A stretch of DNA of 64,000 nucleotides, taken from positions 2,467 to 66,466 of the IMG/VR virus record IMGVR_UViG_2513237120_000001. One strand, 5' to 3'. This DNA is from a virus (lineage: Duplodnaviria; Caudoviricetes). Positions 4,667-40,075 of the stretch are shown in pieces. Position 1 is the stretch's first letter, and every line of letters starts with the position of its first letter. The notes below the pieces were generated by a model. It was not told where the DNA came from and made no database searches. It saw only the letters and a list, made by a program, of their open reading frames with translations. The translations under genes were made by a program, and so were the position numbers.

Positions 4667-4827
4667 CTCCGGCGGGGCCCTCTGGCGCGGGCCCCGCCAC
4701 CACCTGAGGAGACCTGATGCGCACACCGAAACGCACCCGCAGAGGCCGCCGCGGCGGACGACGACACACTCCCGCCCCGGCCCCGCAGCCCGTCGACGAA
4801 CCCACCACCCCCGAAAGGACTAATCCG

Positions 4828-5397
4828 ATGACTCTCTCCACCGACATGTACATCCAAGGCGAGGTCGACCTCGCTGAACTGCGCGACGTCGTCAAGGCCG
4901 CGCTGGCGAAGCACGACGACCAGGGTCGGACGCCCGATCAGCAGGTCTGGGAAACCGGCGGCGAGGTCTGGACGCACTCCGACCTCACCACGCCGGGACA
5001 GGGGCTCCCCGCCTGGACGTTCATCCACTACGGCGAGAACGGCGCCTGGCGCAACCCCGAACCCGAATACGAGGACCCCGAGTACGTCGACGAAGGCGAA
5101 GAGCCCCGCATCGTCACACCGCGGCACTTCGCCCGGATCGACTTCGATACCGCCTACGGCTACACCGGCCCGAACGGCGAGGGCTGCTCCGAGCTGCACA
5201 CCGCCTTGATGATCCAGGTCGGGGCCTGGATCGACGCGCAAGGCGTGCCGTGGCAGTGGCGCAACGAGTACACCGGCGAGATCCACAACGCCTACGAAGG
5301 TTTCGAGGAGTTCGCCGGGAACGGCTATGAGGCGACGGCCTGGTTCAAGCGGGTCATGCCCGCGATCGCGGCCGCTGCCGCCGAGGAGGCCAAGTAG
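4828..5397 (+). CDS. Conserved-looking actinophage hypothetical protein
   Basis: RBS GAAAGGAC; globular composition (RIDFDTAYGY...WQWRNEYTGE). Confidence 0.65.
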   Translation: MTLSTDMYIQGEVDLAELRDVVKAALAKHDDQGRTPDQQVWETGGEVWTHSDLTTPGQGLPAWTFIHYGENGAWRNPEPEYEDPEYVDEGEEPRIVTPRHFARIDFDTAYGYTGPNGEGCSELHTALMIQVGAWIDAQGVPWQWRNEYTGEIHNAYEGFEEFAGNGYEATAWFKRVMPAIAAAAAEEAK

Positions 5398-29612: not shown

Positions 29613-30797
29613 ATGGCTCTCACCCGCTCCACCATCGCGTTGACGCGGAGACTCCGGCGCGACATCGGCACCGAAACCGATGACGCGGACCGGCACCTCA
29701 CCCGGCAGTGGGTCGAAGCGTGGGACCGGCTCGCACCCACCTGGAGTAGGGCAGTCACCGAGCTCGCCGCGGCGGCCGTCGCCGCAGGCTCGTGGCCGAC
29801 GGTGCATCAGATCGCCCGCTCGACGGCGATGGATGCGCTCGTGGCGTCCCGCGTGGAGCTGGACAAGCTCTCCACAGAGACGGACACGACTGCTTCGGCG
29901 GGCGCTGAGCGGGTCGTGGAGATCGATACCGAGCTCGAACCCAGGATCATCGCCTCGCAGGCTCCGGAGACGCAGCAGGAAGCCCTCACCAGGTACATCC
30001 TCCGGCGAGAGCAGGACGAGCCGGACGTCACCGATGGCGGCATGGTCCCCCCACCATCTGCTACTGACGTCCTCGGCCAGGTCACGATCGCTGGTCTTAT
30101 CGCCGGAAGGTTCGAGCCCAGTGCGCTCGCGGCGATCATCGCCAGAGCGCAGGGGCAGATCCACGCCGACACCTTCCCCCTGTCTCCCGCAGCGGAGCAG
30201 GCGATGAAGGACGCGCTGATCGAGGGCGTGATCGTCGGCGACCATCCCGAACCCATCGCGAGGGACATGCTCGCCCGGGTCGAGCAGGCGTTCAACGGTG
30301 GGCTCACGCGGGCCATGAACATCGCCCGTACCGAGATGCTCGACGCCTACCGTGCGTCCTCCGCATATACGCACCGAGCGAACTCCGACCTGGTCAAGGC
30401 GTGGGTCTGGTACGCCTCCACCGACCGTTTGACATGTCCTGGATGTTTTTCCCGACATGGGACGGTCCACCCGATTACCGAACCGGGCCCGGACGACCAT
30501 CCCCGTGGCCGGTGCACTCGCCTGCCGAAACTCGCCACCTGGGAAGAGCTCGGCATCCGCGCGAAAGAACCACCCCCGATCGTCCTCGACGGCGAGCAAT
30601 CCTTCCGCCGCCTCTCCCGCGCTGACCAGCTCGACGTCATGGGCCCCACACGTCTCGCGCTCCTCGACTCCGGCGACATCACCTGGGACCAGCTCGCCAC
30701 CTGGCGCGACAACCCCCAGTGGCGCCGCTCCAACCAGCCCACAACCGTCCGCGACCTGCAACGCATCGCTGATCAGGAGGTCTCTCGTGTCTCGTAA
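29613..30797 (+). CDS. MuF-like head morphogenesis protein
   Basis: RAMNIARTEMLDAY...RLTCPGC...DDHPRGRCT. Confidence 0.85.
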   Translation: MALTRSTIALTRRLRRDIGTETDDADRHLTRQWVEAWDRLAPTWSRAVTELAAAAVAAGSWPTVHQIARSTAMDALVASRVELDKLSTETDTTASAGAERVVEIDTELEPRIIASQAPETQQEALTRYILRREQDEPDVTDGGMVPPPSATDVLGQVTIAGLIAGRFEPSALAAIIARAQGQIHADTFPLSPAAEQAMKDALIEGVIVGDHPEPIARDMLARVEQAFNGGLTRAMNIARTEMLDAYRASSAYTHRANSDLVKAWVWYASTDRLTCPGCFSRHGTVHPITEPGPDDHPRGRCTRLPKLATWEELGIRAKEPPPIVLDGEQSFRRLSRADQLDVMGPTRLALLDSGDITWDQLATWRDNPQWRRSNQPTTVRDLQRIADQEVSRVS

Positions 30798-32604
30798 GCG
30801 CAAGCCCATGCACCCGCAGCGGCGGCGCGCCGTAGCGGAGTCGGTGGCCGCGCCCGTCCGAGAAGCGGTGTGCGAAGCCGGTATCGCCGAAGCCATCTCG
30901 AAGCCGGGCCGGATGCTCATCCGCCTCATCTCGGCGGGCTGGAGTCTGAACAGCAACTTCTATCCCGCCGAGGTGCTCAAGCGCGACGGTGCGAGGGCGT
31001 GGCCGGCGGGGACGCAGGCGTTCATCGACCACCAGTCCGAAGACGAGGAATACGAACGCCCTGTGGGGTCGGTGGAGAAGCTCGCCGCGGTCCTCACCGA
31101 AGACGCCCGCTGGGACGAAGCCTCCAAGTCGTTGGTTGCTGAGGCCCGCCTGTTCGAGCCGTGGAAGACCCCGCTCATGGACATGGCCCGCGCTGAAGCC
31201 GAAGACGGCATCCCCGTCATCGGCATGTCCATCCGGGCATGGGCATCCGGCGCCCCCGGCGAAGCCGAAGGCCGCTCGGGCACGGTCATCGACCGGATCG
31301 ACCAAGGCCGAAGCGTCGACTTCGTGACCAAGCCTGCCGCGGGCGGGCGCATCCTCGCCGTCCTCGAATCGATCCAGAACCACCAGGTCGTCGAAGCCCG
31401 CACGATCGGCACCTGGCTCGAGAGCCGACTCCACCTTGCCTTGACGCAGTTCGCGGACGACATGTACGGCGACGGCCGCCTCACCCGCGCCGAGCGCATC
31501 GCGCTCTCCAGTGCGATCGGTGACGGCCTCCAGGCGTGGACCGCGCGAGTCGAAGCCGACGCGCCGCAGTTGTTCAAGCGCGGCCCGTGGGACGACGCGC
31601 CTGAAGAGGATCGGGTCGACGAGGCGCTCGCCGACGACACCCGCGCCCGGCTCCAGCGGGCCGTGTCCGCCGCGTACGGCGACGACAACGACGAATACGA
31701 CGACACGTGGGTCAACGATTTCGATCCCGACGAGGGCTTCGTGATCTTCCACGCCGGGGACAAGACCTGGCGCCAGGCCTACACCACCGACGGCGGTATC
31801 GCGCTCGACGGCGACCGCGTCGAGGTCACCCGCCGCACCACCTACGAGCCCATCACCGCCCCCGCTGACGAAGCGGTGACCGCTTCGGCCCGGCTCTCCC
31901 CCATCGAGGTCGCCGAAGACCTCGCCCGCGCCGACCAGGCGCTCACGAACTCACCGACCAGCTCGGTGACGGCCAACGCGCCAGGCTCCCCGCCTGCCGC
32001 AACCCAACCATCCGAAGGAGATTCCGCGATGAGTGGAACCACCACCGAGGCCCCCAAGGGCCCCGAGGCGGGGAACCAGAACGGCACCCCCGTCGCCGAA
32101 GAGGTCGCGGTCGTCGCCGCTGAGCGCGACCAGTACCGCGACCGCTGCAACTCCATGACCGCCGCGCTCACCGAGGCCCAGGCCGAGGCGCGCACCGCCC
32201 GCGCCGAACGCGACCAGGCCGTAGCCCGGTCCCTGCTCCTGGAGGGCAACGAGGCCGGACGGATCGCCGTCGACGCCGCGCTCGCCGCCGAGGAGTCCGG
32301 TGTCCCGGAGTCGATGTACGCCTCGATCGCGCCCCGCGTCCACGCCGCCGTCCGCGGCAACGTCCCCATGGAGGACGGGAAGGTCAACACCGCAGCGCTC
32401 GAAGCGCTCGTCGCCTCCGCGATCAAAGCGGAGCGGACCTACGTCGCCTCGGTCCTCGAATCCCAGGGGATCGGGCAGCCCGCCGGGCTCGGCGGCGACC
32501 CGAACACCATGACCGACGCCGACTTCGAAGCGCAGAACATCGCCGCGTTCGAAGCGCTCGGCATGGACACCGAAACCGCCAAGCTCGCTGCGAAGGGGCG
32601 ATAA
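30787..32604 (+). CDS. Capsid maturation protease with C-terminal scaffold
   Basis: YPAEVLKRD...FIDH...IGMSIRA...SVDFVTKPAAGG; internal RBS GAAGGAG before in-frame ATG 32029. Confidence 0.8.
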   Translation: MSRKRKPMHPQRRRAVAESVAAPVREAVCEAGIAEAISKPGRMLIRLISAGWSLNSNFYPAEVLKRDGARAWPAGTQAFIDHQSEDEEYERPVGSVEKLAAVLTEDARWDEASKSLVAEARLFEPWKTPLMDMARAEAEDGIPVIGMSIRAWASGAPGEAEGRSGTVIDRIDQGRSVDFVTKPAAGGRILAVLESIQNHQVVEARTIGTWLESRLHLALTQFADDMYGDGRLTRAERIALSSAIGDGLQAWTARVEADAPQLFKRGPWDDAPEEDRVDEALADDTRARLQRAVSAAYGDDNDEYDDTWVNDFDPDEGFVIFHAGDKTWRQAYTTDGGIALDGDRVEVTRRTTYEPITAPADEAVTASARLSPIEVAEDLARADQALTNSPTSSVTANAPGSPPAATQPSEGDSAMSGTTTEAPKGPEAGNQNGTPVAEEVAVVAAERDQYRDRCNSMTAALTEAQAEARTARAERDQAVARSLLLEGNEAGRIAVDAALAAEESGVPESMYASIAPRVHAAVRGNVPMEDGKVNTAALEALVASAIKAERTYVASVLESQGIGQPAGLGGDPNTMTDADFEAQNIAAFEALGMDTETAKLAAKGR

Positions 32605-32607
32605 GCC

Positions 32608-32970
32608 ATGGCTACCAACCAGGTTCTGAACCACGGCGACCAGTTCTCCGTCGCCGCCGCCGACGTCAACGCCCCCGCCTCCCCCGAATCCGGGGACGCG
32701 GTCGTGATCGACCAGCTTCCGGCCGTGGCGCTGACGAACGTCTACACCGACACCGACGGCACGAACCGGATCACGGTCAAAACCAACGGGGTCTACGAAT
32801 TCGCGGTCAACGCCAACAACGGCGCGATCGAAGTGGGCCACGTCGTCCACATCCACTCCACCACGGGGGCCGTGACCAACACGGCCACAGGCGGGGTCCG
32901 GTTCGGCTACGCGCTCGGCGCGGTCGCCAGCTCCGCCACCACCGTCATCCCCGTCAAGATCGGCTACTAG
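32608..32970 (+). CDS. Capsid decoration/cement protein (DUF2190-like)
   Basis: SGDAVVI...VKTNGVYEF...FGYAL; between scaffold and capsid. Confidence 0.7.
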   Translation: MATNQVLNHGDQFSVAAADVNAPASPESGDAVVIDQLPAVALTNVYTDTDGTNRITVKTNGVYEFAVNANNGAIEVGHVVHIHSTTGAVTNTATGGVRFGYALGAVASSATTVIPVKIGY

Positions 32971-32980
32971 GAGGCCCACC

Positions 32981-34162
32981 ATGGGACGAAATGACCTGCT
33001 CGAGGTGGGCACGTTCAACCGAGCGAACGCCTCCGAGTCGAAGATCTACGCCGGCGACGGTGCTCCCGTCGCCGCCCGCGCCCGCAAGGCTGCGGCGAAC
33101 CCGAACTACCAGAAGCAGTTCTCCGAGGCTATGGGCCTGTACATGAAGGTCATCAAGGGCGACCGCCGTGCCGCCCTCGATTTCCAGGAGGCGATGACCA
33201 CCTCGGACTTCAGCTTCCTGTTCGGCGACATCATCGATCGGCAAATGCTCGCGAATTACCAGCAGATGCCCGTCCAGTGGACGTCTCTGGCTCGCGCTGG
33301 CCGCGTCCGCGACTTCCGCACCGTCAAGCGGTTCACCCTTGACGGCGGCGAGTCCACACTTCAGGAGGTCGGTGAGCAGTCCGAGTACCCTGCCGCTGAC
33401 CTGGCGGACGGCGAGTACGAGTACCGGGTCCGCAAGTTCGGCCGGCGCATCCCGCTGTCGTGGGAGACGCTGATCAACGACGACCTGGACGCGTTCGCGG
33501 ACATCCCCCGCCGGCTCGGCAACGCCGCCCGCCGCTCGGAGGAGCGGTTCGCCACGTCGCTGTACGCCACCTCGGCGGGCCCGGATTCGACGTTCTTCTC
33601 TGCGGGGAACGCGAACTTGACCGACGAGCAGCTCACCGTCGCGGGCCTCCAGGAGGCCATGCGGATGCTCGGCGAGCAGACCGACGCCGACGGCGACCCG
33701 ATCTACATCGAGGCCGCTACCCTGGTCGTCCCGCCCGCGCTCGAGGTCGCCGCGAGGAACATCCTCAACGCGACCGAGATCCTCGCGGGCACGGGCGGCG
33801 GGGACGGTGTCTCGAACGACCAGCTGCGGGTGACGAACTGGATGCGCAACCGCGTGTCCCTGATCGTCAACCCGTGGCTGCCGATCATCGACACCACCAC
33901 CGGCTCGACCGCCTGGTACCTGTTCGCGAACCCGAACGACGGCCGCCCGGCGATGGAGATCGGCCGCCTCATCGGGCATGAGAGCCCGGAGCTGTTCCAG
34001 AAGTCCCCCAACGCGACTCGTGTCGGGGGCGGCCTGGTCGACCCGACCGACGGTGATTTCGACACCGACTCGGTCGAGTGGAAGGTCCGCCACGTGCTGG
34101 GCGGGACTCTGATGGACGCTAAGAGCGCGCTGGCCTCGACTGGTACGGGGTCTGGAAGCTAA
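32981..34162 (+). CDS. Major capsid protein (Mu gpT-like)
   Basis: VRDFR...YRVRKFGRRIPLSWETLINDDLDAF...LVVPPALE...FDTDSVEWKVRH. Confidence 0.88.
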   Translation: MGRNDLLEVGTFNRANASESKIYAGDGAPVAARARKAAANPNYQKQFSEAMGLYMKVIKGDRRAALDFQEAMTTSDFSFLFGDIIDRQMLANYQQMPVQWTSLARAGRVRDFRTVKRFTLDGGESTLQEVGEQSEYPAADLADGEYEYRVRKFGRRIPLSWETLINDDLDAFADIPRRLGNAARRSEERFATSLYATSAGPDSTFFSAGNANLTDEQLTVAGLQEAMRMLGEQTDADGDPIYIEAATLVVPPALEVAARNILNATEILAGTGGGDGVSNDQLRVTNWMRNRVSLIVNPWLPIIDTTTGSTAWYLFANPNDGRPAMEIGRLIGHESPELFQKSPNATRVGGGLVDPTDGDFDTDSVEWKVRHVLGGTLMDAKSALASTGTGSGS

Positions 34163-34868
34163 TAGCACCTGGCTTCCCGTGATGGTGAAGCCGCGCGTGG
34201 CATCCACGACAGAGAGTCATGAGGTTGCTGGGGTCATGATTGGTCTTCCCCCAGTCGATGTGGTGAATCACCAGTTCCCCAGCAACCTCTGGCTCGGGCG
34301 CGAAACCGCAGATCCGGCAGGTGTTGCCGTCACGTTCACGGATTGATTCCCGGAGTCGTGGTGTCCATCCGGGAGCGTACGGCAAGAACGAGATACCACC
34401 ACGCCAACGGAAGTGTTTCGGGCCTTGCATATTCGGCTTCTCCCGAGCCCGCATATCGGGGTCCTTGTTTGCGCACTGGCGTGAGCAGTAGGTGTATCGC
34501 TGGAGGGTGGCGCTGGTCCGCCACACGGGCTTGTCGCACATCTTGCACGGCAGCCATTGGCCCTGCCTCAGCTTGAGATTGGGCCCAACAATGCCGACAG
34601 CCCGGCAAGCTCGGCTGCAATAGTTCGACTCGTACTTCTCCAGTTGCGACGGTTTACGGGTGAATTCTTTCCCGCAGGTGGCACACTCGGCAACTCGTCG
34701 TTCGCCACTACCCCAATGGGCAAGTTGCATTTGCCTTCGGGACTCGGAAAGGCATTCGGGTGAGCAGGAGAACTTGCCGCTTTTGTTCTGCTTGAGCCTG
34801 CTGGGTTTGACGGTGAATTCGGTTCCGCACACGTTGCAGGACACGATGACTCGTTGAGGTTTTCCCAC
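34119..34868 (-). CDS. Free-standing HNH endonuclease with three Zn-ribbon repeats, antisense in the head operon
   Basis: CxxCG.EF...CS..C x3; IRERDGNTCRICG...VIHHID...NHDPSNLMTLCRGCHARLH. Confidence 0.85.
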   Translation of the reverse strand: MGKPQRVIVSCNVCGTEFTVKPSRLKQNKSGKFSCSPECLSESRRQMQLAHWGSGERRVAECATCGKEFTRKPSQLEKYESNYCSRACRAVGIVGPNLKLRQGQWLPCKMCDKPVWRTSATLQRYTYCSRQCANKDPDMRAREKPNMQGPKHFRWRGGISFLPYAPGWTPRLRESIRERDGNTCRICGFAPEPEVAGELVIHHIDWGKTNHDPSNLMTLCRGCHARLHHHGKPGAISFQTPYQSRPARS

Positions 34869-34904: not shown

Positions 34905-35072
34905 ATGAGTACCCGGCCAGGGGGAGAGCAGCCACAGGAACCATCGGTGACTGGGCTGCTCTCCGACATCCTCGACGAACTCCGGGATCTGAACCGGAAG
35001 ACCGCCCGGCGCGAACCCCGTGACGGGCGCATCTACCTCGAAGAACCCGCACCGATCCGGGAGCGGCCGTGA
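34905..35072 (+). CDS. 55-aa hypothetical protein (not in ORF track in this frame)
   Basis: MSTRPGGEQPQEPSVTGLLSDILDELRDL...IYLEEPAP; GTGA overlap with the next gene. Confidence 0.5.
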   Translation: MSTRPGGEQPQEPSVTGLLSDILDELRDLNRKTARREPRDGRIYLEEPAPIRERP

Positions 35073-35722
35073 CCATTCCGCACACGCTGCACCAGATCTG
35101 GATCGGCCCCGACCCGCTCCCCGCGGAATACGCCGCCTATACGGAAGGCTGGCGGCAGCTACACCCGGACTGGGAGTACCGGCTGTGGACCGAGGACGCG
35201 CTCCCGGTCATGCGCAACCGGGACCTCTACGACAGGGCCGAGGAGCTCGTCCCTGAGCATTCGGTGTGGCAGTTCCGGTCTGATGTCCTCCGCTACGAGG
35301 TCCTGTGGTCCTACGGCGGCCTGTATGTGGACGTCGACTTCGAGTGCCTCCAGAACGTCGAACACCTCCTGGGTGAGGCTGAGGCGGTCGCGGCGTGGGA
35401 AGCGCAGGACCGGTGGGTCAACAACGCCATCCTCGGTGCAGAGCCAGGCCATCCGTTCATCGACCGGCTGATCACCGGACTTCCTGCGTCGGTCGAGCAC
35501 CACCGTGGCCTGCGCCCGAACATCTCGACCGGCCCGCAGTACCTGACTGGGCTGTGGCGCCGCCACCGCGACGAGCTCACCGTGCTCCCACAGGCCCTGT
35601 TCTACCCGTACTCGTACGCCGACGTCGGCACACCGAAAGAACACGGGCCGTGGCCTGGCGCTGTGGCAGTCCACCATTGGGCGAACCGGCGCCGCACCAT
35701 CGCCAGGGGAGGCCAGCGGTGA
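35069..35722 (+). CDS. Glycosyltransferase, GT32/OCH1-like (DXD)
   Basis: IPHTLHQIW...SDVLRYEVLWSYGGLYVDVDFEC...NNAILGAEPGHPF. Confidence 0.88.
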   Translation: MTIPHTLHQIWIGPDPLPAEYAAYTEGWRQLHPDWEYRLWTEDALPVMRNRDLYDRAEELVPEHSVWQFRSDVLRYEVLWSYGGLYVDVDFECLQNVEHLLGEAEAVAAWEAQDRWVNNAILGAEPGHPFIDRLITGLPASVEHHRGLRPNISTGPQYLTGLWRRHRDELTVLPQALFYPYSYADVGTPKEHGPWPGAVAVHHWANRRRTIARGGQR

Positions 35723-36420
35723 AGACCGTCACCCTCCCCGCCGGCGCCGACTGGCGCGGCCGATCGCTCATGCCCTTCGTCACGATCGAGGTCGACGAGA
35801 CCGACCACATCGGCCGGATCATCAACCGCGGCACCTGGTACGAGAAAGACCTCCTCGACGACGCCTTCGCGCGCGTCCAGGGACCGGGGACCGCGATCGA
35901 CGTCGGCGCCCACATCGGCAACCACGCCTTGTGGTTCGCGCGGGCGATGGGCCTCAGCGTGGTCGCGCTCGAACCCAACCCGACGACCCACGAGCAACTC
36001 CTACGCAACGTCGCAGCGAACGACCTCAGCTTCCCTTACCCAAACATGCCTTCGGTGCGGTGCCTCAACGCCGCCGCCGGGGCCCGCCACGGTTGGGGCC
36101 GCATGACCGAGCCCGCGATCGCGCACAACTCCGGGACGTGCGCCGTCGTCCGCGAACCCGACGACGTCGAAGCCGGACCGGACCACATCTCCATCCTCCC
36201 GCTCGACCAGCTCATCCTCGCCGCCCCCGTGAAGCTCATCAAGGTCGACGTCGAGGGAGCCGCGGGCGCTGTGCTCGTCGGGGCCGTTGAGCTCATCGAC
36301 GAGCACTCCCCGGTGATCTACGCCGAGGGCGACCGGGACGCGATCCAGGACGCACTCCCTGACGGCTACCACTGTTTCGGCAGGTTCGCGAAGACCCCGA
36401 CCTACGGATTTTCCCGATGA
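35719..36420 (+). CDS. FkbM-family SAM-dependent methyltransferase
   Basis: AIDVGAHIGNHAL...ALEPNP...LIKVDVEG. Confidence 0.88.
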   Translation: MKTVTLPAGADWRGRSLMPFVTIEVDETDHIGRIINRGTWYEKDLLDDAFARVQGPGTAIDVGAHIGNHALWFARAMGLSVVALEPNPTTHEQLLRNVAANDLSFPYPNMPSVRCLNAAAGARHGWGRMTEPAIAHNSGTCAVVREPDDVEAGPDHISILPLDQLILAAPVKLIKVDVEGAAGAVLVGAVELIDEHSPVIYAEGDRDAIQDALPDGYHCFGRFAKTPTYGFSR

Positions 36421-37505
36421 CCGTGTCTGTCGCGATCATGGCCCACCCGAAGCGGTCCGAGTTCATCCCCGAACTCGAGGCCCAGTTGGATCGGCCCGCG
36501 ACGGTGGCGTGGGACGACGGCTCCAACTCCCGCTGGGGCACCGGCCGGAGGGCACTGCTCGCCTACGAACCCGCCGCGACGCATCACCTCGTCATCCAGG
36601 ACGACGCTGTCATCCCCCGCGACCTCGTCGCCGGCGTCGAAGCTGCACTCCAGTACACGCCAGGGGACGTCCCGGTGTGCCTCTATGTCGGCAAGACAAG
36701 GCCCTACCGGGAGATGGTCCGCGAGTACGTCAAACGTGCTGAGCAGGGCGCGTCGTGGCTGGTCATGGACCAGATCAACTGGGGTGTCGCAATCGTATTC
36801 CCCACGAACATCATCGACGACATGGTCGCGTGGTGCGACACGCAGCGGATCCCGAACTACGACTCCCGCATGTCGCTGTGGTTCGAGCACCAGGGGATCC
36901 CGACCTGGTATCCGTGGCCGTCACTCGTCGACCACCGCGAATCCCCCTCACTCGTACCCGGGCGCGGCCACTCGGGCAGGGTCGCTCACCGCTTCATCGG
37001 CGCCGATGTCTCGGCGCTAGACATCGACTACTCCGGTGACGTGCTGCGTCTCCCGAGCGTTTCTGACTACCGGCCAGGAGGTCAACCCATGCTGTTCTAC
37101 TGCACCAAGCACGACAATCTCTCCGTCCCGACCATCGGGGTGCGGTTCAAGGACCACTTCGCGGAGGCGACGACGAGGGGCGCGATCGCGTATCTCCAGT
37201 CGCCGTTCATGCGCCGCCGCGGCGTCCGCCCCGCGACCGAAGAGGAGGAGGCCGCGTGGCGCGGCGAGACCACCGGTGGACCTGTGCTCGTCCAGGAGCC
37301 CGCACCGGTCAACCCGCCCGCCACGCAAAACCCGGCCCCTGACGGGCAGCACGAGGCCGTTCCCGACGGGAAGGCCGAAGAGGTGCTGGCGTGGGTCGGC
37401 GACGACCCCAGCCGCGCTCAGGGCGCCATTGACGCCGAGCAGCAGCGGGAGAAGCCTCGCAAGACCCTGCTCGCCAAGCTCGAGACCATCGCCAGGGCGG
37501 AGTAG
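36417..37505 (+). CDS. GT-A-fold glycosyltransferase-like protein fused to a C-terminal virion-type domain
   Basis: VSVAIMAHPKR...HHLVIQDDAVI...PSLVDH; in-frame internal ATG 37089 with RBS AGGAGG. Confidence 0.7.
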   Translation: MTVSVAIMAHPKRSEFIPELEAQLDRPATVAWDDGSNSRWGTGRRALLAYEPAATHHLVIQDDAVIPRDLVAGVEAALQYTPGDVPVCLYVGKTRPYREMVREYVKRAEQGASWLVMDQINWGVAIVFPTNIIDDMVAWCDTQRIPNYDSRMSLWFEHQGIPTWYPWPSLVDHRESPSLVPGRGHSGRVAHRFIGADVSALDIDYSGDVLRLPSVSDYRPGGQPMLFYCTKHDNLSVPTIGVRFKDHFAEATTRGAIAYLQSPFMRRRGVRPATEEEEAAWRGETTGGPVLVQEPAPVNPPATQNPAPDGQHEAVPDGKAEEVLAWVGDDPSRAQGAIDAEQQREKPRKTLLAKLETIARAE

Positions 37506-37511
37506 TCAGCG

Positions 37512-37865
37512 ATGGCGATCGACTACGACACCGACCTGGGCCGGGTCCGGCTGCTGATCGCCGACACCGACGAGCCGAGCAACCTGCTGCTCACTGATGA
37601 GCAGATCACCACGTTCCTGTCCATGGAGGGCAGTGTCAAGCGGGCCGCGGCGCAGGCGCTGGACACGATCGCCTCGTCCGAGGTGCTGGTGTCGAAGAAG
37701 ATCCGCACCCTCGATCTTCAGACGGATGGTCCCGCGGTCGCTGCGGAGCTGCGGGCCCGCGCGAAAGAACTGCGGGACCAGGACGACGCGGACAACGACG
37801 ACCCATGGGCGATCGACGTGATCAACTTCGACCCGTGGGCCGCCTACCGGACCGAGGGAATCTAG
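37512..37865 (+). CDS. Head-to-tail adaptor
   Basis: GRVRLLIADTD...LLTDEQI...AAAQALDTIA. Confidence 0.7.
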   Translation: MAIDYDTDLGRVRLLIADTDEPSNLLLTDEQITTFLSMEGSVKRAAAQALDTIASSEVLVSKKIRTLDLQTDGPAVAAELRARAKELRDQDDADNDDPWAIDVINFDPWAAYRTEGI

Positions 37866-39563: not shown

Positions 39564-40075
39564 GCGACCAAGTGCCGCTTTCGGTCTCGGCGGACGGCAA
39601 CCTCAAGGTGCTGTGGGTGCCCGCGATCGCCGACACCACCGCGCCCACCATCGACGAAGTCACCGCTCTCGAAGTGGTGGAGCTGTCGTGCTATCTCACC
39701 GCGGACGGGTGGACCCCGGCCACCGATGAGCAGGTCTCGAACGACGACCGGCTGTGCTCGAAGCAGACGTTCGAGAAGCGCGGACGCTACACCGACACCC
39801 TCAGTGTCACCTACGTCTACCAGGGCCAAGAGCTCACCGCCGAGGACAACAAAGCCCAAGCCACGATGCAGGAGGGCGAGGCCGGGTTCGTGGTCGCGAG
39901 GTGGGGCGCGGACTATGCCGTGCCGATGGCCGTCGCCGATGTCGTCGACGTCTACACCGTCGAGTGCGGCATCCCCGTCAAGCAGGCTCCCGAAGCGAAC
40001 GCGCGCCTGCGGATCATGCAGAAGCTGTTCGTCACCAACACCACCCAGCGCGACAAGGCGATCGTCGCCTCATAG
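39560..40075 (+). CDS. Major tail (tube) protein
   Basis: DGNLKVLWVPAIAD...LSCYLTADGW...RLCSKQ; position. Confidence 0.8.
   Translation: MSDQVPLSVSADGNLKVLWVPAIADTTAPTIDEVTALEVVELSCYLTADGWTPATDEQVSNDDRLCSKQTFEKRGRYTDTLSVTYVYQGQELTAEDNKAQATMQEGEAGFVVARWGADYAVPMAVADVVDVYTVECGIPVKQAPEANARLRIMQKLFVTNTTQRDKAIVAS

Follow-up and report, generated by a model that had tools for sequence, protein, structure and literature searches.

A glycosyltransferase gene with a conserved internal start and a head-region C-terminal module in a siphovirus-type prophage: a possible route for targeting virion glycosylation

Introduction

The nested protease-scaffold genes of phage lambda (C/Nu3), as well as those of phage P2 (gpO) and herpes simplex virus 1 (UL26/UL26.5), are organised so that the protease shares the C-terminus of the scaffold, and in lambda this common part carries the enzyme to the head under assembly. 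Here we describe an arrangement that may follow the same logic with a glycosyltransferase as the enzyme, in the open reading frame (ORF) at positions 36417-37505 of a 64,000-nucleotide (nt) stretch of tailed-phage DNA (IMG/VR record IMGVR_UViG_2513237120_000001, positions 2,467 to 66,466; hereafter, the window), which corresponds to a siphovirus-type prophage with a guanine-cytosine content of 67.6%. We propose that this ORF is a nested in-frame pair closing a virion-glycosylation cassette between the capsid gene and the head-region genes, and that a module common to both products would place the enzyme where the free small protein assembles; from what the sequence tells, the chances of this proposal being right or wrong appear evenly balanced.

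Phage virion glycosylation has been shown only recently. The capsids of phage Che8 (cluster F) are reported to be glycosylated (PMC11256854, citing Freeman et al. 2023), and in cluster O phages a set of methyltransferase and glycosyltransferase modifies both the capsid and the tail tube (PMC11600133, citing Freeman et al. 2023). How are cytoplasmic glycosyltransferases routed to the right virion proteins? This is not addressed in the papers available to us, and full-text searches returned no paper on fusions of glycosyltransferases with head proteins, on internal starts, or on the C-terminal module described below as a family.

A glycosyltransferase fused in frame to a small protein with its own start

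The ORF (36417..37505, plus strand) encodes 362 residues, with 224 codons upstream of an in-frame ATG at 37089 and 138 downstream, and there is no stop codon between the glycosyltransferase part and that ATG. A sequence-only reading of the window had proposed precisely this layout, that is, about 224 glycosyltransferase-like codons, an AGGAGG and an ATG in the same open frame, and a 138-residue part with a Pro-rich linker and a helical C-terminus; the coordinates and the open frame were verified, and the nature of both parts is borne out by profile matches and structure prediction. The GT-A glycosyltransferase domain (36417..37061, plus strand) is identified by PHROG 854 (‘glucosyltransferase’, residues 1-195, E 5.8e-38), by the AlphaFold model and by Foldseek. 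After it comes an internal Shine-Dalgarno (SD) sequence, AGGAGGT (37076..37082, plus strand), formed by the rare codons CCA GGA GGT and recognised both from the sequence and from its hybridisation energy; its AGGAGG core (37076-37081) is separated by a 7-nt spacer (TCAACCC) from the ATG (37089-37091), which lies in the frame of the ORF. The nested short frame beginning there (37089..37505, plus strand), delimited by the sequence and by the junctions of its homologs, comprises three plus-strand segments, distinguished in the first place by the predicted local distance difference test score (pLDDT) of the model: a small alpha/beta domain, MID (37089..37271; MLFxSxKYPNLxVP...VRFxDG...RRGVRPA); a disordered linker rich in Pro, Glu and Ala, containing EPAP repeats and varying in length, also evident in the alignment (37272..37346); and a three-helix C-terminal module, CT (37347..37502; VPDGxAxxVLAWVGDDxxRAxxALxAExxxxKPRxTLxxxL), with a pLDDT of about 97 and retrieved as well by profile search.

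The model of the 362-residue protein, based on an alignment of 53 homologs (mean pLDDT 88.5), shows a GT-A domain with high pLDDT over most of its length (blocks of 76-98), a compact MID (residues 225-285), a disordered segment (residues 287-310, pLDDT below 50, variable in length across the alignment) and a confident three-helix CT (residues 320-360). The pLDDT of MID is 88-97 in the full-length model and 81-93 when the domain is modelled alone. Such very high values within the whole protein, together with the short joint between the enzyme and MID, would suit another explanation, in which only the 362-residue protein matters, with MID acting in acceptor recognition or regulation, CT in oligomerisation, and the internal start being a relic of a former gene boundary or working at trace level. 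The near absence of stand-alone MID-CT proteins speaks in the same direction, since homologs of 75-242 residues amount to two matches (P0121 and P0122) in a collection of 5.8 billion proteins, one of which, P0121, begins exactly at the internal Met. We consider this single-enzyme explanation unlikely in view of the conservation of the start signal, to which we return below.

The fusion of the glycosyltransferase to MID-CT is real and conserved. Some 60 homologs align over 97-100% of the 362-residue query at 43-73% identity, and in all fetched loci with MID-CT this part is in frame with an enzyme. When 160 glycosyltransferase loci were searched with the glycosyltransferase, MID and CT parts (tblastn), none had the glycosyltransferase and MID-CT as separate neighbouring genes. 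As to whether the homologs are split or fused, they are fused in more than 50 full-length cases (43-77% identity). The loss of a stop codon by sequencing error or private mutation was also considered and is excluded by the stop-less frame of these diverged homologs, whose sources are independent metagenomes and one Glycomyces genome; nothing was found in favour of such an artefact, whose probability we regard as negligible.

Conservation of the internal start signal

An AGGAGG is not rare in itself inside genes (the listed genes of the window contain it internally 13 times), and the significance of the internal site comes from its conservation in relatives rather than from its rarity. Members of the close clade invariably use GGA GGT for the pair of Gly residues that precedes the junction Met. 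GGA and GGT represent 6.8% and 10.3% of the Gly codons, respectively, the pair GGA GGT is used in one of 72 Gly-Gly pairs, and, among the 17 conserved Gly columns of the gene, these two are the sole invariant codons other than GGC; where members share a residue, their third positions agree in just 52-74% of cases. Furthermore, distant members with other residues at the site (LGVA, PEETT, RGVTS, KGKP) retain an SD-like sequence (TAGGAGT, GAGGAG, AGAGGAGT or AAAGGG) located 4-9 nt upstream of a GTG, ATG or TTG. The junction residue is Met in 39 of the 53 homologs, Val in 13 and Cys in the remaining one, and the junction codon is ATG, GTG or TTG in all 15 junctions whose DNA was read. Since the start signal is kept while the amino acids differ, it fits selection for a separately started short product. 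A relic, as the single-enzyme explanation would have it, would neither preserve rare codons across lineages near synonymous-site saturation nor keep a start codon in every junction read, and Met or Val in 52 of 53 homologs, amid residue changes.

In terms of pairing to the 16S tail, the internal SD reaches -11.5 kcal/mol against a gene background with a mean near -3, which places it within the top 1.2% of in-frame gene positions (top 0-2% in the window clade), and it is at least as strong as that of the capsid gene (-10.2 kcal/mol), which also speaks against a single functional product. The junctions of fusions outside the window clade range from -5.5 to -9.0 kcal/mol. In turn, the enzyme's own ATG (36417) has a weak SD (-3.3 kcal/mol) and overlaps the stop codon of the preceding methyltransferase gene as ATGA. 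The locus therefore presents an open frame with an internal SD and start, and a start signal conserved beyond what the protein sequence needs. Since no stop separates the enzyme from a small protein whose own strong start signal is retained, the phage probably makes both the tethered enzyme and the free 138-residue protein, and, judging by the SD strengths, we infer that the long product is rare and the short one abundant.

The cassette and its probable function

The fused ORF is the last of three enzyme genes, in the order capsid gene, DXD glycosyltransferase, FkbM methyltransferase, fused ORF, 117-residue head-region gene and DUF6093 gene. Those from the capsid gene to the 117-residue gene are on the plus strand: the major capsid protein (393 residues, 32981..34162) matches Pfam Phage_capsid_4 (E 1.4e-48) and PHROG capsid families; the first cassette enzyme (35069..35722) is a DXD sugar-binding glycosyltransferase of the Gly_transf_sug type (PF04488, E 1e-13), syntenic in relatives at 81-83% identity; the FkbM-type methyltransferase (35719..36420; PF05050, E 4.2e-9) likely starts, according to a start-site scan, at GTG 35719 (SD of -11.1 kcal/mol), overlapping the preceding stop as GTGA; and the conserved 117-residue protein (37512..37865; PHROG 18316) is followed by the DUF6093 gene. 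The order of the cassette is kept in relatives from IMG/VR and in one Glycomyces genome, at 60-85% identity, while in relatives devoid of the cassette the homologue of the 117-residue gene directly follows the capsid gene. A megablast of the region against cultured phages gave no matches.

As for the enzymology, Foldseek matched the GT-A domain to protein O-glycan GT-A transferases (5ggi, 1foa, 6nqt and GalNAc-T2, with E values down to 4e-6), its structural neighbours being POMGNT1, GnT-I, GalNAc-T2 and mimivirus R655, and the residues Q61-D62-D63, at the DXD position, are invariant in the 53 homologs. Using the enzyme as query, tblastn found 434 phage records, including glycosyltransferases of cluster F mycobacteriophages that are 33% identical over an alignment limited to residues 1-197 or so; no mycobacteriophage record matched the 138-residue part, and many of the glycosyltransferase homologs are stand-alone proteins without MID-CT. 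The domain thus combines the PHROG 854 profile match, a GT-A fold with an acidic motif and a location among glycan enzymes next to structural genes. From homology and position, the trio formed by the DXD glycosyltransferase, the FkbM methyltransferase and the GT-A enzyme is probably best read as a virion-glycosylation cassette.

Which protein would receive the glycans? The capsid protein ends in a short Ser/Thr/Gly tail (...ASTGTGSGS), which is a candidate acceptor. Both the capsid (...SALAS-TGTGSGS, 34130-34162) and the tail tube protein (...AIVAS, 40060-40075) end in or near a Val/Ala-Ala-Ser motif, and such ends are similar in relatives without the cassette. A different proposal would be that MID-CT itself is the acceptor, a small glycoprotein with sugars on its Pro-rich linker, and that the fusion keeps a copy of the enzyme beside its substrate in a mixed oligomer. 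The linker is indeed rich in Pro, Ala and Glu, Ser and Thr are scattered along it, its EPAP repeats are conserved, and MID-CT travels with the cassette in the capsid lineage of the window; nonetheless, the Ser and Thr residues of the linker are few and unconserved, related cassettes of other phages do without MID-CT (as Pas33-35 of phiAsp2), and many glycosyltransferase homologs are stand-alone proteins. We hold this proposal to be very unlikely.

The C-terminal module and the assembly of the free protein

Searches of the 138-residue part against Pfam (up to E 5), NCBIfam and PHROG assigned it to no family. Its model retrieved nothing from the PDB with Foldseek at E<=0.001 (the best matches, with E about 1, were the N-domain of ribosomal protein L9 and YqbF, 2hjq), the matches of VIA-align (Z up to 6.6) were all generic helical/three-helix or RRM-like folds, a sequence-profile search of the PDB gave nothing meaningful, and the ESM Atlas returned only unnamed clusters (scores up to 0.87). 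By contrast with this lack of names, a profile of CT collected 2,645 cluster representatives (clusters at 50% identity) at E<=1e-3, 826 of them at E<=1e-10, and no Pfam family was found on CT in any of the CT members scanned. Its carriers are mostly small actinophage head-region proteins (60-200 residues) with varied N-terminal domains. The sequence-only reading had also pointed to a resemblance between the 138-residue part and small proteins encoded after actinophage capsid genes, and this resemblance holds: the last ~45 residues match gp8 of Streptomyces phage Kromp, encoded between the major capsid protein and the head-to-tail connector, the comparison of CT with the Kromp gp8-type C-terminus yields an hhalign probability of 99.5% (E 1.4e-22, 49 columns), and dozens of CT-bearing IMG/VR proteins have their genes immediately downstream of capsid genes, which belong to at least four PHROG families (1357, 1650, 10 and 1005). 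In addition, there are small head-region proteins with two tandem copies of CT (P0122, and 4710-5294 in the loci L203-L205).

The combination of MID and CT has been joined to at least four unrelated glycan enzymes: apart from the PHROG 854 GT-A enzyme, it is found on a TagF-like enzyme (L168, L267, L269 and P0172; a motif reading with no family match), on a protein with an NTP-transferase plus a galactosyltransferase, PHROG 1721 (L169, L289, P0207, P0209 and P0266), and on a PHROG 7999 protein with a weak, sub-threshold Stealth match (P0246). In every locus with readable neighbours, the enzyme gene that closes the cassette is the one with MID-CT at its end; in L242, a stand-alone MID-CT follows the capsid gene. 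Within the capsid lineage of the window, MID-CT appears only where an insert of 3-7 kb lies between the capsid gene and the 117-residue gene, and members of the lineage without the insert pass straight from one gene to the other and have no MID-CT. CT also ends structural proteins with Big_2 Ig domains (P0176, and a truncated ORF at the contig end of L180), which, along with the head-region position, hints indirectly at a role in capsid decoration.

On these grounds, we suggest that ribosomes coupled from the methyltransferase gene would make a small amount of the 362-residue tethered enzyme, and that initiation at ATG 37089 would make much more of the free 138-residue protein. The CT common to both would carry the enzyme to wherever the free protein assembles, and the two would co-localise because they end in the same module. 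That place would most likely be the surface of the capsid or procapsid, or a homo-oligomer attached to it, given the head-region position and the Ig-domain fusions of CT, and, thanks to the flexible linker, acceptor tails of neighbouring virion proteins would come within the enzyme's reach. Capsid targeting has circumstantial support, from CT on Ig proteins, MID-CT on several glycan enzymes and the location in the head region. A broader, rather doubtful generalisation is that CT constitutes a widespread and so far undescribed actinophage address module, docking glycan enzymes, Ig-like decoration domains and small domains onto the assembling head. The strong start kept at the stop-less junction would then set how many subunits bear an enzyme relative to plain ones, and a few glycosyltransferases riding on the capsid would decorate it from within the lattice.

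Several observations weigh against this proposal. Regarding the start, some fusions have a weak SD (L231, with -5.5 kcal/mol, at the 32nd percentile), and the junction residue is Ile in P0266 and Thr in the MID-only P0066, so that the start signals of these proteins, weak or absent, agree better with a single multidomain enzyme. Regarding the acceptors, the C-termini of capsid protein and tail-tube protein are alike in relatives with and without the cassette, and this comparison singled out no acceptor. Regarding the docking site, CT is found beside at least four unrelated capsid families, in some phages between the portal and the protease-capsid genes, and sequence-specific binding to one capsid protein is therefore hard to reconcile with its distribution. 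It is also far better conserved than the capsid proteins that it accompanies, and its context could point to a non-capsid partner or to self-association.

Could CT then bind nucleic acid or a host factor, placing the enzyme at the phage DNA, at the site of packaging or on a host protein that is conserved? P0073, from the same glycosyltransferase family, ends in an Lsr2 DNA-binding domain (E 5e-11), and so do P0075 and P0099 according to precomputed Pfam assignments; in the three of them, what is fused to the glycosyltransferase is a different small domain plus the Lsr2 domain. The Lsr2-type junction of L013 has an AAGGAGA 7 nt upstream of an in-frame GTG. These similar junctions and the high conservation of CT make a DNA, host-factor or self-association partner possible, and the C-termini of P0091 and P0118, which we take by eye, and not from a tool, to be HeH/Rho_N-like, would add to it. 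Nevertheless, Pfam searches up to E 5 linked CT to none of HeH, SAP, Rho_N and Lsr2, NCBIfam gave no match either, its sequence is slightly acidic overall, and structure searches yield only generic three-helix matches; we hold a nucleic acid or host-factor partner to be quite unlikely. This enzyme family may be generally inclined to stop-less junctions in which a start is kept.

Neighbouring genes and related loci

The window also includes genes for a primase-helicase, a large terminase, a protease-containing protein, a tail tube, a tape measure and a lysin. Between the capsid gene and the cassette, but outside the system, lies an HNH endonuclease-like gene on the minus strand (34119..34868; Pfam HNH, E 1.3e-4), which encodes a zinc-ribbon-rich protein of 249 residues and overlaps the end of the capsid gene, stop included, by about 40 nt. 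Its absence at the corresponding place in the close syntenic relatives L004, L006, L007 and L083 gives it the look of a recent homing-endonuclease insertion. Upstream of the capsid gene, residues 151-311 of a 715-residue protein (30457-32604) form a head-maturation protease domain, and its long C-terminal half is without assignment; it is followed, just upstream of the capsid gene, by a 120-residue ORF (32608-32970); these two may be a protease-scaffold arrangement.

Other contents are found between the capsid and 117-residue genes of relatives. In the same capsid lineage, the inserts of L274, L275, L276 and L278 (3-6.6 kb) have no MID-CT. L168/L268 (IMG/VR 3300037743_000223), with a capsid protein 70% identical to that of the window, carries a different cassette, made of two TylF-type O-methyltransferases, a LicD-family protein, a DXD glycosyltransferase and the TagF-like enzyme fused to MID-CT, and between that cassette and the 117-residue gene lie some 4.8 kb of additional genes, one of them an ORF of 1,074 residues.

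Comparison with described systems

Both the translational logic (that of lambda C/Nu3) and the enzymology (that of mycobacteriophage virion glycosylation) are known, and it is for their combination, and for the CT family, that we found no published description. A conserved fusion of an enzyme with a head protein, having a second start built in, would offer a concrete targeting mechanism that can be tested with mutants. Furthermore, CT, with its approximately 2,600 clusters, could serve as a natural handle to display enzymes or other cargo on actinophage particles, which would be relevant for the engineering of glycan-coated phages, such coats being reported to change how antibodies recognise the particles.

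The locus resembles the virion glycosylation of mycobacteriophage clusters F and O in having a phage glycosyltransferase and, as in cluster O, an O-methyltransferase; it would differ from them in its proposed nesting and tethering, neither feature being mentioned for those systems in the papers available to us. The order glycosyltransferase-methyltransferase-glycosyltransferase and the translational coupling are found again in Pas33-Pas35 of the Actinoplanes phage phiAsp2, and Pas35 is 40% identical to the fused ORF over residues 1-220. However, Pas35 has 247 residues and ends after the enzyme domain, without MID-CT, and the phiAsp2 cassette is located after tail genes instead of after the capsid gene.

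Regarding the small protein, Kromp gp8 and its uncultured relatives, annotated as hypothetical, likewise have a small N-terminal domain, a Pro/acidic linker, CT and a post-capsid position, but they are free-standing, with no enzyme, and their N-terminal domain has no detectable homology to MID. YqbF, from the skin prophage of Bacillus subtilis (PDB 2hjq), was a weak Foldseek match (rank 3, E 1.2, probability 0.15) with no sequence similarity; we take it to be a small protein with a helical C-terminal domain whose gene follows that of a prophage capsid protein, and regard it only as a lead.

The comparison with lambda C/Nu3 concerns the organisation of the genes. The enzyme here is a glycosyltransferase instead of a maturation protease, the short product is no recognisable scaffold, and the protease region of the phage itself lies upstream. 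In common with lambda, a single frame has an internal in-frame start and would yield two products with the same C-terminus, the short one in abundance and the long enzyme in smaller amount.

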